DNA of 64,000 nt from a virus: positions 2,610-66,609 of the IMG/VR virus record IMGVR_UViG_3300042563_002923; one strand, written 5' to 3'. Positions 1,072-17,333 of the stretch are shown here, piece after piece; the stretch's first letter is position 1; every line of letters starts with the position of its first letter. The notes under the pieces were generated by a model. The model made no database searches. It saw nothing but the letters and a program-made list of their open reading frames with translations, and was not told the DNA's origin. Position numbers and translations under genes: made by a program.

Positions 1072-1959
1072 ATGATCGTTGTTGATTACAGCCAAACGGC
1101 AATTTCAAACTTGATGGCAGAAATTGGTGGTAGAAAAGATATTGAGATTCAGGTGCCTTTGTTGCGTCACATGATTTTAAATTCTATTCGCGGATATAAA
1201 CAAAAATTTGGTAAAGATTATGGGCAGCTTGTTATTGCTATCGACAATCGTAATTATTGGAGGAGACAAGAATTCCAATACTACAAAGCAGGTCGCAAAA
1301 AAGCACGTGAGGATTCTGGTCTAGATTGGAAAACAATCTTCGAAGCCCTTGATCTTATTCGTACTGAGATTGATAAATTTTTTCCTTATAAAGTAGTTAA
1401 CGTCGACGGCGCCGAAGCAGATGATGTAATTGCAGTATTGGCAGAGTGGTCTCAAACCAATGACTTTGCAGAAGGTGGAGTCTTTAACGATGATCCAAAA
1501 CCATTCTTAATTGTATCGGGTGATCATGATTTTATTCAATTACAAAAGTATAAGAATGTAAAACAATTTTCTCCTACACAAAAGAAATTTGTTAAACCGG
1601 AAATGTCACCTACTCAATATATTTTTGAGCATACAATTAAAGGTGATAAAGGCGACGGTATCCCTAATGTATTATCTGCGGATGATAGCATTGTAGCGGG
1701 AGAAAGACAAAAACCTATTACTGCTAAGAAATTAGAAGCATGGTATAAAGATAAAACATCTATGCCAAATGATGCAGATTTTATTCGCAATTTTGAGCGT
1801 AATCAAAAATTAGTTGACTTTAGTTTTATTCCTGCAGATGTTAAAAACGCTATTATAAATAACTACACAGGGCAACCTGATAAAAATAAGAGTATGCTTT
1901 TGAACTTTTTCATTGAGCATAAAATGAAAAACATGCTAGAATTGATTGAGGAATTTTAA
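1072..1959 (+). CDS. rnh: T4-type RNase H / 5'-3' flap exonuclease
   Basis: MIVVDYSQ start, YWRR..YYKAGRKK, EADDVIA, SGDHDFIQLQ, GDKGDGIPN motifs. Confidence 0.95.
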   Translation: MIVVDYSQTAISNLMAEIGGRKDIEIQVPLLRHMILNSIRGYKQKFGKDYGQLVIAIDNRNYWRRQEFQYYKAGRKKAREDSGLDWKTIFEALDLIRTEIDKFFPYKVVNVDGAEADDVIAVLAEWSQTNDFAEGGVFNDDPKPFLIVSGDHDFIQLQKYKNVKQFSPTQKKFVKPEMSPTQYIFEHTIKGDKGDGIPNVLSADDSIVAGERQKPITAKKLEAWYKDKTSMPNDADFIRNFERNQKLVDFSFIPADVKNAIINNYTGQPDKNKSMLLNFFIEHKMKNMLELIEEF

Positions 1960-2453
1960 TGAAAACATCTATCCCACAAATCCTTGAAGAGGTTGACAAG
2001 GCCCCCAATAAAGAAGCACGCGTAAAAGTCTTACGTGCATATAATCATCCAGTGCTTCGAGGTATCTTGCAGATTAATTTTAACCCCGATGTTAAATTGG
2101 CATTGCCCGAAGGTGTACCCCCTTATAAACGGGATGAAAAAATTCCTGCAGGGTATTCTGAAACAAATTTATTTTCAGAATTTCGTCGTATGTATATTTG
2201 GTTAGATCCTAATATTAATCTTAACAAGCTCAAAAAAGAGCAATTGTTTATACAAATGTTAGAAGGTATTCATTGGACAGAAGCGGATGTATTATGTTTA
2301 GCAAAAGATAAAAAGTTGCAAACAAAATATAAAAATCTAAAAGAGGATATTGTACGTGAAGCATTTCCAGATGCCCTTCCTCCACCTAAACCAGCGGAAG
2401 TAGTAACGAAAGACCCAAAAGCAAAAAAAGAGAAAGTCTCTTTGAAAGGTTGA
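1959..2453 (+). CDS. conserved T4-like hypothetical protein downstream of rnh (DUF6433-like); possible -1 frameshift extension to 2587
   Basis: LPEGVPPY, KKEQLFIQMLEGIH..EA.VL..AKDKKL motifs typical of this family; position after rnh. Confidence 0.75.
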   Translation: MKTSIPQILEEVDKAPNKEARVKVLRAYNHPVLRGILQINFNPDVKLALPEGVPPYKRDEKIPAGYSETNLFSEFRRMYIWLDPNINLNKLKKEQLFIQMLEGIHWTEADVLCLAKDKKLQTKYKNLKEDIVREAFPDALPPPKPAEVVTKDPKAKKEKVSLKG

Positions 2454-2490
2454 CTCGGTTCTTCAAACGAGACGTACCCGAACCGGTTAA
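2423..2490 (+). other. candidate -1 ribosomal frameshift element (A_AAA_AAA + 6 nt spacer + H-type pseudoknot)
   Basis: In-frame heptamer 2423-2429; stem 1 GTCTCTTTGAA 2436-2446 / TTCAAA(C)GAGAC 2462-2473; stem 2 CGGTTC 2456-2461 / GAACCG 2480-2485; -1 frame open to TAA 2585-2587. Confidence 0.6.
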
Positions 2491-2573
2491 AAGTGAATGG
2501 TCATATTATGGTGAAATACCAGATGACCCAAAACACGACCCTAGAATTATGAATATCCATCAATACAGAGCAT

Positions 2574-2602
2574 TTGACAAACGTTAAAAAAGATGTTATA
2601 AT
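2574..2602 (+). promoter_or_regulatory. sigma70-type early promoter
   Basis: TTGACA-17 nt-TATAAT, perfect consensus, with TG extension. Confidence 0.85.
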
Positions 2603-2621: not shown

Positions 2622-3014
2622 ATGACAATGCACATCGTTGGACCTTGGTTATCTACAAATGGTAAGAAAAAGGGCAAGGTTAAATTCAAAAGCGCAGAAG
2701 AGGCACGCAATGCTAGAGCTCTTGCACAAGAGTGGTCTTCTATGAAGAAAAAATGGGGAGTAGAAATTGAAGAGTCTAAGCGTAACCGCGCTATGGCTGC
2801 TGAGGTTTATTCTCCCCCAGTAACATCCAATCCTCGCGGTGTTACAAATAATATCAAAAGTTTAAATTCAAAAACAACCGGTGCGGTTTCAAGTAAGCCG
2901 TCGCCCGTGTATACTGGTACAAAGGTTATAGGTATCGGCACAATGCACAAATCCAATGCCGTTCCTATCTTTAGTGATGACGAGGCAAAAGAAATTTCTA
3001 CAATGAGGCGTTAA
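2622..3014 (+). CDS. conserved phage hypothetical protein
   Basis: GGGAG RBS; C-terminal YTGTKVIGIGTMHKSNAVPIF motif seen in T4-like phages. Confidence 0.75.
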   Translation: MTMHIVGPWLSTNGKKKGKVKFKSAEEARNARALAQEWSSMKKKWGVEIEESKRNRAMAAEVYSPPVTSNPRGVTNNIKSLNSKTTGAVSSKPSPVYTGTKVIGIGTMHKSNAVPIFSDDEAKEISTMRR

Positions 3015-3379: not shown

Positions 3380-3661
3380 ATGGCAGGTATCCCATCCAAC
3401 CCGGCAGATCGTAAAGCAATTTTAGAATGCATGAAAGAAATCTCAAATAGTATGGCTCGCATGGACGGCGAGCGCGAATTCGTTCGTGAAGCTATTAAAG
3501 ATATTTGTGAAAAACAAGAACTTAGCAAAAAGACTTTCCGTCGTATGGCTAAGGTATATCACAAACAAAATTTCAGCAAAGAAATTGAAGAGCACGAAGA
3601 GTTTGAAACAATGTATGAGACAATTACAAACTCAACAACAATGAATAGTAAAACAGAATGA
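3380..3661 (+). CDS. dsbA: T4 DsbA-like double-stranded DNA-binding protein
   Basis: 93 aa, KEISNSM...KKTFRRMAKVYHKQNF..E..E.EEFETMYE pattern. Confidence 0.7.
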   Translation: MAGIPSNPADRKAILECMKEISNSMARMDGEREFVREAIKDICEKQELSKKTFRRMAKVYHKQNFSKEIEEHEEFETMYETITNSTTMNSKTE

Positions 3662-3926: not shown

Positions 3927-5252
3927 ATGACTATATTATCTACTATTTTTGACTCTTTAGCCGCTGACAATTCCCGCCTGGCTAAAGAAGCAATCTTAAC
4001 TGCAAATAAAAATAATAAAGATTTACAACGAGCAATCAAACTTGCTCTGGATCCGCTTATCAGTTTTTACATTCGTAAAATTCCAGAATATAAAGCAACC
4101 GGCAATGCAAAATTGTCGGATGCAATGAGTACTCTTGAGAATGAATTTGCTACACGCAACTTCACTGGTAATGCCGCAATTGAACTTTTAACTAGTATTT
4201 TGGAATCTTTAAATGAAGCAGATGCCAGTGTTATTGAAAAAATTATCAAGAAAGACCTTCGATGCGGGGTTTCAGAAGCAACAGCTAATAAAATCTGGCC
4301 TGGTCTTGTCTCGACCTATCCGGTTATGTTGGCTTCTGGATTCGACCAAAAGCTTGTCGACAAAATTAAATTCCCGGCATACTGTCAGTTAAAATTAGAT
4401 GGAATGCGTTTTAACGCAATTGTAAAAAATGGAACTGTTGAATATCGTAGCCGCAACGGCAAAGAACTTACTATTCCAAGTAAGTTGTTTAGTGACGCAT
4501 TTCTCAAGCTTACTAGTTATTATGATACCGCTATTGTTTTTGATGGCGAATTACTAGTAGTAGATCATGCAGGTAAACCGCTTGATCGCAAAACAGGCAA
4601 TGGTATCCTTAGCAAAGCTGTTAAAGGTACAATGTCAGAAAAAGAAGCAGAATCAGTTCGTGTAACACTATGGGATGCGATTCCATATATTGACTTTAAA
4701 GCAGGTTGTTATGCTGTTCCTTATAATGATAGGTTTCAAGCAATTGTTAACAGAACTACACATCTAAAAACAACGAATCGCTCATTAGGTTCATTAATTG
4801 ATTGCGTATGGACTAAAGAAGTAAATACACAACTTGAAGCACAAAATATATTTGAGAAGTTCTTAGCTGATGGGCAAGAAGGAACTATTCTTAAATCTAA
4901 GACAAACATCTGGGAAGATAAGCGCTCCAAAGAACAAATTAAATTCAAAGGTGAATTGGAATGTGATCTTGTTGTCGTAGGTTGGGAAGAAGGCACAGGT
5001 AAAAACAAAGGTCGCTTAGGCGCACTTGTATGTGAATCGTCTGACGGATTAATTCAAGTTAATGTTGGATCGGGTTATACTGACGAGCAACGCGAAGAAT
5101 ATAATAAATCTGTTATTGGTAAAATTGTAACCGTTAAATACAATGCAAGAATTAAAGATCGTGGCGAAAATGTTGAACGATTATTCTTGCCAATCTTTAT
5201 TGAAATACGCGAGGACAAAGATGCAGCAGATCCAATCGGAAAAATCAAATAA
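3927..5252 (+). CDS. 30: ATP-dependent DNA ligase (gp30)
   Basis: KLDGMR motif I, FDGEL, EGTILK, WEDKRS, OB-fold GSGYTD, LFLPIF.EIREDK. Confidence 0.96.
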   Translation: MTILSTIFDSLAADNSRLAKEAILTANKNNKDLQRAIKLALDPLISFYIRKIPEYKATGNAKLSDAMSTLENEFATRNFTGNAAIELLTSILESLNEADASVIEKIIKKDLRCGVSEATANKIWPGLVSTYPVMLASGFDQKLVDKIKFPAYCQLKLDGMRFNAIVKNGTVEYRSRNGKELTIPSKLFSDAFLKLTSYYDTAIVFDGELLVVDHAGKPLDRKTGNGILSKAVKGTMSEKEAESVRVTLWDAIPYIDFKAGCYAVPYNDRFQAIVNRTTHLKTTNRSLGSLIDCVWTKEVNTQLEAQNIFEKFLADGQEGTILKSKTNIWEDKRSKEQIKFKGELECDLVVVGWEEGTGKNKGRLGALVCESSDGLIQVNVGSGYTDEQREEYNKSVIGKIVTVKYNARIKDRGENVERLFLPIFIEIREDKDAADPIGKIK

Positions 5253-16637: not shown

Positions 16638-17333
16638 TTAGACGAAAAAATTTTGTAGACCTTCTAAATCTACAATATTTGTTTTTTTACAACTAGGACA
16701 GTCTGTTTCTATATGTTGTACTATTTTTGGAATATTTCTAAAAAACTCTTCAAGTTTATCAAATTGCTTTTTTGTAAAAGAACTAACAAACGTGTTCAAC
16801 TCTTCTTCGGTGTATGATGTTTTATCAAAATAATCATCTTTGGTAAACACTGCATCTACACAATCTGTTATTAGTTCTACAATACGGGTACTATTTGAAT
16901 TATCTCTTATAGACAACATTTCGTCGAACTGCGGATATCTTAGTATCACTCCAATATCTTCAGTTAATAATACTTTATTTGTTGTAGATTCATCCTTAAC
17001 TACCGTTAATTTTGTTATATCTAATGTGTGATCTATTTTTGTTCCACATTCGCAATTAATTACGATGTCTGCAGTTTCACTAATTGATTTTGCTCGTATA
17101 TTTAAAAATAAGTATTCAACATCAAAGTGAGCTAATTTTGATATATTTAATTTATTGAATGTGCAATTATCAACTAATTCAGTTACAACTCTTGTTATTT
17201 CTGAAACATCTGCTTCTACAGTTGTTAAGAGTATTTTATATTCTTTTACTAAAAATGGTCTGTACTTAACTTTTTTATTTGTAGATGGTAGTATTAATTC
17301 ATACGTTGGGGTTTCTAATATAGGCAATGCCAT
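16638..17333 (-). CDS. 26: baseplate hub assembly chaperone gp26-like
   Basis: MALP..ETPTYEL.LPS..KKVKYRPFLVKE.KILL, FDVEYLFL.IRAKS, C.C and CPSC motifs, LEGLQNFF end. Confidence 0.9.
   Translation of the reverse strand: MALPILETPTYELILPSTNKKVKYRPFLVKEYKILLTTVEADVSEITRVVTELVDNCTFNKLNISKLAHFDVEYLFLNIRAKSISETADIVINCECGTKIDHTLDITKLTVVKDESTTNKVLLTEDIGVILRYPQFDEMLSIRDNSNSTRIVELITDCVDAVFTKDDYFDKTSYTEEELNTFVSSFTKKQFDKLEEFFRNIPKIVQHIETDCPSCKKTNIVDLEGLQNFFV

Follow-up and report, generated by a model that had tools for sequence, protein, structure and literature searches.

A probable -1 ribosomal frameshift adds a conserved C-terminal extension to the DUF6433 protein of uncultured T4-like phages

In Escherichia coli dnaX, a slippery heptamer of the A_AAA_AAG/A type on tandem Lys codons, with a near downstream hairpin and an upstream Shine-Dalgarno (SD)-like element, gives rise to the tau and gamma isoforms. 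The orfA-orfB pair of IS3/IS911 elements uses an A_AAA_AAG/A heptamer with mixed stimulators (upstream SD, downstream structure) to produce transposases with a long downstream open reading frame (ORF). Here we analyse the DUF6433 gene of a T4-like phage, which follows rnh in a DNA stretch of 64,000 nucleotides (nt), hereafter the window (positions 2,610 to 66,609 of the 66.6-kb viral record IMGVR_UViG_3300042563_002923, which is 41% complete). Comparison with related loci makes it very probable that a -1 ribosomal frameshift at an A_AAA_AAA heptamer near the end of this gene gives a 209-amino acid (aa) form beside the 164-aa form encoded in the zero frame.

The locus resembles dnaX in having its heptamer on tandem Lys codons with a hairpin a few nt downstream, and in the two predicted isoforms of a replication-associated protein, which would differ in their C-terminal module; in relatives of the window, an internal SD-like element about 10-14 nt upstream adds to the likeness. 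It differs from dnaX in that the shift here would add 52 residues, whereas in dnaX a stop soon follows and makes the shifted product the shorter of the two, and in the protein family, which is DUF6433, similar to a ligase DNA-binding domain (DBD). With IS3/IS911 it has in common the heptamer type, the mixed stimulators and a downstream frame without its own start, but the product there is a mobile-element transposase with a long downstream ORF and not a 52-aa extension. Among phage genes, the tail assembly chaperone uses a -1 frameshift that some T4-like lineages have swapped for another gene arrangement (PMC10885494, citing Vladimirov et al. 2022). The chaperone proteins G/GT offer the parallel of phage -1 programmed frameshifting near a gene end, with short and C-terminally extended forms, replaceable in some lineages; they are, however, unrelated proteins of a virion assembly module, whereas the present gene lies in an early replication/repair neighbourhood (rnh - DUF6433 - ... 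- dsbA - ligase). In the parts of two articles drawn on here, the recoding described for phages concerns mostly tail-chaperone and capsid genes (PMC10885494, PMC5009743), and the gene 60 bypass is the only T4 case in the corresponding parts of the 2016 recoding review (PMC5009743). The proposed mechanism is the canonical bacterial and phage -1 frameshift; the gene family is a new place for it.

A slip site and a conserved -1 frame

An earlier note, made from the letters of the window, had proposed an in-frame heptamer followed by a 6-nt spacer (2430-2435), an 11-bp stem with one bulge, a loop segment CGGTTC (2456-2461) complementary to GAACCG (2480-2485) and extendable to 2450/2490, and a -1 frame of 52 codons without an ATG before its last 12. 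All of these elements are present in the sequence (Table 1). The bulge is C2468, the extended loop pairing occurs in the nested minimum-energy fold with one bulge and one G-U pair, translation from 2429 gives exactly the 52 quoted codons, and the only ATG of the frame is codon 41. The extension begins with RESLFERLTRFFKRD and continues through a Pro-rich linker to W..G.IPDDP.HD.R...YRAFDKR. The -1 frame opens at 2390 and has no ATG, GTG or TTG from there to 2450, where a TTG forms a TTGA overlap with the zero-frame stop, as the note had also pointed out. The predicted trans-frame product is 157 + 52 = 209 aa. A second in-frame heptamer, C_CCA_AAA at 2414-2420, lies 9 nt 5' of the run of seven A (A7), inside the open -1 frame; it is found in the window and in one related locus (L001), and is absent from the other relatives.

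A layout of this kind might be accidental, with the -1 frame open by chance, a decayed remnant or the product of a homopolymer sequencing error: 41% of the window's 63 ORFs of at least 100 aa have a -1 frame open for at least 40 codons past the stop, and a Lys-rich C-terminus makes A runs likely. When an in-frame XXXYYYZ within the last 90 nt is also required, 2 of the 63 ORFs remain. The other one is on the minus strand, with T_TTT_TTC / A_AAT_TTT in frame near the ORF end (about 16644-16653) and 61 open -1 codons beyond its stop. An excess over chance is not settled by the window alone and comes from the related loci.

A scan of viral contigs gave 76 such loci. One of them, L001, shows no difference from the window across the matched gene and possibly represents the same phage. 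Homologues of the extension were sought in them by tblastn, with the 52-aa peptide first and then with 19 diverse versions of it. They were found in 62 of the 76 loci, and in 62 of these 62 in the -1 frame of the DUF6433 gene. An in-frame heptamer lies in the overlap in 59 of the 62, as A_AAA_AAA in 45, A_AAA_AAG in 8 (six A only, with C or T before them) and C_CCT_TTG in 6 (no homopolymer run); three loci (L052-54) are without one. In most of these loci the heptamer is 28 nt 5' of the zero-frame stop. The two Lys codons are invariably preceded by A, while the codon to which this base belongs varies (GCA, CCA, TCA, GTA). In 27 of the 62 loci, no ATG, GTG or TTG occurs in the -1 frame between the point where it opens and 12 nt beyond the zero-frame stop. 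In several lineages, the -1 frame is closed by a stop codon 3 nt 5' of the heptamer, so that there is no other entry point there.

The peptide is conserved from its first post-slip codons. Across 43 distinct sequences it reads [LIFV]-F-[EG]-R-[LIF]..FFK, a Pro-rich linker, and W...IP.DP..D.R......YRAFDK, with W, D, D, R, Y, F, D and K invariant in the alignment of the extension (A2), and its conservation can be followed to about 37% identity, the substitutions having a coding-type pattern. In 98 close pairs, the differences fall 26/16/58% at -1 frame codon positions 1/2/3. By this pattern the -1 frame is under purifying selection. Conservation extends upstream of the zero-frame stop, where the Arg of the FER motif is kept in 39 of 41 distinct sequences through the codons AGG (10), AGA (12), CGT (7) and CGC (10), while the zero-frame residues opposite it vary freely (KG, SV, DA and others). 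As far as sequence comparison shows, the -1 frame is translated from the slip site. A chance or decayed frame is made extremely improbable by this coding-type conservation and by the identical frame layout in contigs of many independent assemblies. Four read runs were examined, all in the form of contigs; these document how A7 was assembled but give no measure of slippage or expression. Across A7, no indel occurs in the contigs from two DNA runs and one RNA-library run. The RNA-library contig (X17, 2402-2658) carries 15 substitutions and no gap; it represents a relative and is no proof of transcription. The many independent assemblies and the gap-free contigs exclude a homopolymer error.

A different reading is that two separate genes are present, with a 45-aa protein made from TTG 2450 by termination-reinitiation at the TTGA overlap and no frameshift at all. 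The TTG occurs at this overlap in 32 of the 62 loci, and public gene callers call ORFs of 37-46 aa at the extension. In addition, the three loci without a heptamer are also the only three with an ATG of their own, in a TAATG overlap, and their peptides start MRWFF or MEWFF; L052 and L053 are identical in this region, so that the split form counts as two independent sequences. In these loci (about 1989-2126) and in two profile-search matches (P0121, P0125), the C-terminal module is a separate protein of 43-46 aa. In L053, a hairpin is placed over the start region of the small protein. Against two genes as the general arrangement stand the loci with no start codon at all, the absence of the heptamer exactly where an ATG is present, the lack of ATG, GTG or TTG in the window between 2390 and 2450, and the conservation of the -1 peptide 5' of the TTG, where the window encodes RESLFER, for instance of an Arg through four synonymous codons. 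Furthermore, nine different codons occupy the TTG column in the 43 distinct relatives: TTG in 20, ATC in 10, CTA in 5, TTC in 2, ATG in 2 (both split forms), and GTC, CTC, ATA and TTA once each. By this comparison, the codon at 2450 acts as a hydrophobic motif residue and not as a conserved start. The earlier note's caveat of an independent start at this TTG is thus correct as to the codon being there, but fails as the sole route, because the peptide is already conserved 5' of this codon, which reads TTG in fewer than half of the distinct relatives. We regard two separate genes as quite improbable.

Transcriptional slippage, by which RNA polymerase would add one A within A7 and the resulting A8 transcripts would encode the 209-aa protein in a single frame, is very improbable. 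It would fit the seven-A run of the window and of the 45 A_AAA_AAA loci, and homopolymer A/T runs are known slippage sites according to the review by Atkins et al. 2016 (PMC5009743). However, 14 of the 59 sites are A6G or CCCTTTG, so that slippage is not the general mechanism. The run also keeps its register with respect to the zero frame, which slippage does not require, and stimulators typical of ribosomal shifting accompany the site. No A8 form occurs in the contigs, although contigs drop rare variants.

Together, these comparisons strongly support the earlier claim that a -1 frameshift adds a hidden C-terminal extension and yields two forms of the protein: when homologous loci are aligned, heptamer type, open -1 frame, peptide and missing start codon are all conserved (59/62 for the heptamer, 62/62 for the frame, 27/62 for the missing start). 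A clade of uncultured T4-like phages from lake water has kept both signal and peptide, and many of its members have no usable start codon for the extension.

Outside the 62 loci, the picture changes. Of the 14 loci without a detected homologue, seven (L062-67, L072) keep an in-frame heptamer, followed by a divergent -1 ORF of 43-49 codons (..PFGRFF..W..YYDIPKYEDYYTFKIHKE). The heptamer of this sister group (about 1968-2111) is A_AAA_AAA, L072 also having C_CCT_TTG, and its -1 ORF ends differently, in ..W.SYYDIPKYEDYYTFKIHKE. The seven other loci, at 28-44% identity, have neither heptamer nor extension. Both are absent as well from five cultured relatives, namely Pelagibacter phages Mosig and HTVC008M, Synechococcus phages S-CREM1 and S-RSM4, and Sinorhizobium phage phiN3. 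Among 50,697 phage records, a DNA-level search with the region gave no match and tblastn with the extension gave none at E <=1. Word-based searches of 5.8 billion proteins with the extension, at near and at longer lengths, found nothing. A profile search of 1.84 billion representatives gave nine matches at E <=0.001, seven of which are called ORFs of 37-93 aa containing the extension. The longest of these, P0126 (93 aa), was considered as a fusion and rejected, being an ORF called in the -1 frame and reaching back into the DUF6433 gene; the longer matches P0128 and P0129 look unrelated and were not retained as homologues. The DUF6433 protein itself has 301 relatives in the word-indexed protein set, and among the 120 of these that are listed, lengths are 155-179 aa, none being that of the fused form. 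It also matches 484 isolate-phage records, all below 60% identity and over residues 1-138 only. No description of a frameshift in a DUF6433 gene was found in the literature searched, supplementary lists of predicted frameshifts lying outside that search. Since no isolate phage in the collection has the extension, it could not have been seen experimentally.

Stimulatory elements and the proposed mechanism

As possible stimulators we considered a structure 5-9 nt downstream of the heptamer and/or an SD-like element 10-14 nt upstream of it. Hairpin S1 begins 6 nt after the heptamer in the window, and its 15-nt loop holds the zero-frame stop. An anchored scan could place a hairpin in 33 distinct sequences of the A-heptamer type, and in all 33 it starts 4-6 nt 3' of the slip site, on the core TTTG/CAAA; L046 and L062 have different helices at this position. 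Lineages with and without the bulge represent different registers, and covariation was therefore counted in the nine bulge-free sequences (8 distinct). In these, 95.5% of cells pair, compared with 30-64% in slid registers; one pair varies as UA/AU/GU and is compensatory, while 7 of the 11 pairs never vary, and the covariation score was equalled by 4 of 500 shuffles. When the 3' arm of S1 was recoded synonymously, the native duplex exceeded the average stability of the recoded ones in all seven lineages (7/7), with individually modest fractions of 0.018-0.38. The peptide itself accounts for part of this pairing, since codons for Phe/Leu are complementary to those for Lys/Glu. By comparison of relatives, the position of the hairpin is conserved and its covariation modest, and the hairpin is likely to be the downstream stimulator. 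The downstream structure is very stable in L062 (-23.7 kcal/mol, z -3.9); L063-67 have no such structure, but carry AAGGAG upstream.

The earlier note had gone further and proposed stimulation by a pseudoknot, in which the S1 loop pairs downstream as a second stem, S2. S2 was judged as a duplex against synonymous shuffles of its 3' strand. Its energy in the window is -12.6 kcal/mol compared with a mean of -10.7 for the shuffles, a fraction of 0.19 of which match or exceed its stability; the corresponding fraction ranges from 0.04 to 0.29 within the window's group and from 0.5 to 0.98 in the others. The complementarity (W/R-F codons against E/K-P codons) also persists in L053 and L054, which are of the ATG type and do not shift. 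The hairpin was kept and the pseudoknot dropped because S2 is close to the shuffles, because its complementarity occurs in ATG-type loci, and because a 6-nt loop would have to cross an 11-bp stem, a caveat that the note had itself raised and which stands. S2 as an evolutionarily supported element was rejected, being no stronger than the encoded peptide makes likely. Thus, the complementarity is real in the window and a pseudoknot is possible there, but it is not supported by comparison.

A GGAGG-type SD-like element ends about 11-13 nt upstream of the heptamer in six of the seven distinct C_CCT_TTG sequences, with an anti-SD duplex of about -12 kcal/mol, a strength reached by none of 6029 background windows; in the seventh sequence, L072, the element is absent (-0.1). 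L046 has an SD-like element comparable to those of the C_CCT_TTG group, and L063-67 have weaker ones. The C_CCT_TTG slip site lies about 9-12 nt 3' of the A7 position, on what are the codons CTC TTT G of the window. The slip site has thus changed its place without loss of the trans-frame peptide.

We propose the following sequence of events. Ribosomes translating the DUF6433 gene would reach A_AAA_AAA, where a fraction would slip one base back, the tRNAs of Lys156 and Lys157 re-pairing on AAA AAA and decoding resuming at AGA (2429-2431), with help from the hairpin that begins 6 nt downstream. The slipped ribosomes would read 52 more codons in the -1 frame to give 209 aa, and the others would stop at 2453 to give 164 aa. 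Both forms would have the helical domain resembling a ligase DBD and a flexible Lys/Pro-rich linker; the long form only would carry the amphipathic helix (LFERLTRFF), a Pro-rich spacer and the conserved W...IP.DP..D.R...YRAFDK end. The ribosomal nature of the slip, its stimulation by the hairpin and the importance of the ratio of the two forms are what we infer.

Several observations weigh against this mechanism. RNA 2430-2495 folds at -14.1 kcal/mol compared with -13.9 +/- 2.8 kcal/mol for dinucleotide shuffles (z -0.06), 84 of 200 shuffles being at least as stable, and its excess of stability over synonymous shuffles is modest in the window (z -1.8). The window has no SD-like element upstream of the heptamer (anti-SD duplex -0.9 kcal/mol). 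A single-frame fusion of DUF6433 and the extension was found neither among the nine profile matches nor in the word-based search for longer proteins. The split ATG forms (L052-54; P0121, P0125) imply that the C-terminal module can work as a separate small protein. Finally, TTG 2450 and its counterparts in the TTGA-overlap loci could give some independent initiation, and A7 could allow some transcriptional slippage. Weighed against the comparative evidence, these points leave a -1 ribosomal frameshift at A_AAA_AAA very probable.

Gene neighbourhood and fold of the DUF6433 protein

The coordinates of the features discussed here are collected in Table 1. The DUF6433 gene overlaps the rnh stop with its start (ATGA-type overlap at 1959), and its position next to rnh is conserved in cyanophages, pelagiphages and rhizobiophages. 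The zero-frame product belongs to Pfam PF20025 (DUF6433; E 1.2e-30, 106.3 bits compared with a gathering cut-off of 38.9, residues 8-121) and falls in phrog_461. It consists of a helical domain (about 1-140) followed by a disordered Lys/Pro-rich segment.

Table 1 Features of the rnh-DUF6433-ligase region (positions in the window)
Feature	Position	Strand	Description
rnh	1072-1959		Pfam 5'-3' exonuclease and T4 RNase H C-terminal domain
DUF6433 gene, zero frame	1959-2453	+	164 aa, ends ...AKKEKVSLKG-stop
Slippery heptamer A_AAA_AAA	2423-2429	+	X_XXY_YYZ register, gc(A AAA AAA) in zero frame
-1 frame extension	2429-2587	+	52 codons and TAA (2585-2587), by translation
Hairpin S1	2436-2473	+	Arms 2436-2446 (GTCTCTTTGAA) / 2462-2473 (TTCAAACGAGAC), 11 bp, C2468 bulged
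Putative second stem S2	2450-2461 / 2480-2490	+	Core CGGTTC/GAACCG; H-type with S1
Zero-frame stop TGA	2451-2453	+	Overlaps -1 frame Leu codon TTG (2450-2452)
130-aa ORF	2622-3014		After apparent gap 3' of DUF6433 gene
Cupin gene			Between 130-aa ORF and dsbA
dsbA	3380-3661		
ATP-dependent DNA ligase	3927-5252		441 aa; has nucleotidyl-transferase and OB domains

The end of the -1 ORF is overlapped by a perfect sigma-70-type promoter at 2574-2602 (TTGACA, 17 nt, TATAAT, 12/12, with TG). Its -35 hexamer is written within the invariant Phe-Asp-Lys codons (TTTGACAAA). TTTGACAA[AG] is kept in 38 of 43 distinct relatives; the other five read TTTGATAAG and have a separate TTGACA about 23 nt downstream, with FDK still kept. 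A 23-nt stretch at 2588-2610, comprising the -10 region of the promoter and the leader of the next gene, recurs with 96% identity upstream of the window (G000:C1:1205-1227). In two runs, the depth of contigs climbs steeply across 2584-2633, in the manner of a repeated element, and the 20-mer at 2595-2614 is unique within the window.

An AlphaFold2 model of the 164-aa product, built from a 29-row alignment, shows an eight-helix domain (predicted local distance difference test (pLDDT) 82, predicted template modelling score (pTM) 0.74) and is disordered from about residue 147, residues 147-164 having a pLDDT below 50. The model was compared with 48,161 representatives of the Protein Data Bank (PDB). 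The top 12 matches are all DBDs of ATP-dependent DNA ligases, and the next row has a Z of 4.4. The best match is the T4 ligase DBD (5wfy), with Z 14.2, a root-mean-square deviation of 3.5 and 129 of 132 residues aligned, and it is followed by the ligases of P. marinus (Z 13.7) and of a Rhizobium phage (Z 11.2). Foldseek agrees on a ligase DBD (probability 1.00, E 1.9e-3). According to the model, DUF6433 has the fold of the DBD of ATP-dependent DNA ligases, as in T4 ligase (PDB 5wfy/6dt1). Unlike those ligases, it is without a nucleotidyl-transferase or an OB domain, and is therefore not a ligase. It shows no significant sequence similarity to the 441-aa ligase of the same phage. A 150-aa homologue in S-CREM1 is labelled "DNA ligase" in its GenBank record (OP535465.1, 19710-20162).

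The extension matches no family: Pfam and PHROGs gave none, and the best ESM Atlas score was 0.82, below the useful range. Modelled alone with AlphaFold2, it has short helices at 4-12 and 38-50 and no compact fold (pLDDT 67, pTM 0.17). It opens with a predicted amphipathic helix, LFERLTRFF, placed after the disordered linker. Linker, helix and invariant C-terminal motif together suggest, from their sequence, a short binding module; our guess is that the extension is most likely a protein-binding module which ties a nick- or duplex-binding protein to another replication or repair factor. A complex prediction for DUF6433 residues 1-146 with the extension (alignments A3 and A2) scored 0.02; made without controls, it speaks neither for nor against binding. 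In the parts of PMC6212786 drawn on here, the short amphipathic, hydrophobic motifs that sit on a flexible linker and bind the pocket of the gp45 clamp are given as EPEGLDFLFD for T4 ligase and EKASLDFLFG for gp43. By analogy, the helix of the extension appears to be of the general kind that binds the T4 clamp, a resemblance only. A clamp gene was not found in this 41%-complete record; clamps and polymerases were located in three complete relatives. In one of these (G001; L087 475-2967), the DNA polymerase ends in ..ATLEGLFS, resembling the gp43 end quoted above from those parts of PMC6212786.

Implications for the replication genes of T4-like phages

A more far-reaching scenario can be drawn, which we consider doubtful. 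The frameshift would set the ratio of two forms of a stand-alone nick- or duplex-binding protein resembling a ligase DBD; the long form, through its clamp-type helix and YRAFDK end, would attach either to the replisome or to the machinery that matures Okazaki fragments, next to RNase H and ligase, as a phage counterpart of the tau/gamma logic of dnaX; and the signal would have been rebuilt in at least three ways, as an A-heptamer with a hairpin, as C_CCT_TTG with an internal SD, and as a split gene with an ATG.

The very probable -1 frameshift in the DUF6433 gene adds a well-supported recoding event to the early replication/repair gene block of T4-like phages, with a 52-aa extension that automatic annotation had missed. 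The match of the modelled fold to ligase DBDs is the first structural lead for DUF6433. Lastly, the clade offers a natural variant series for the exchange of stimulators, in which A_AAA_AAA or A_AAA_AAG occurs with a hairpin, C_CCT_TTG with a strong SD, and the split gene with an ATG.

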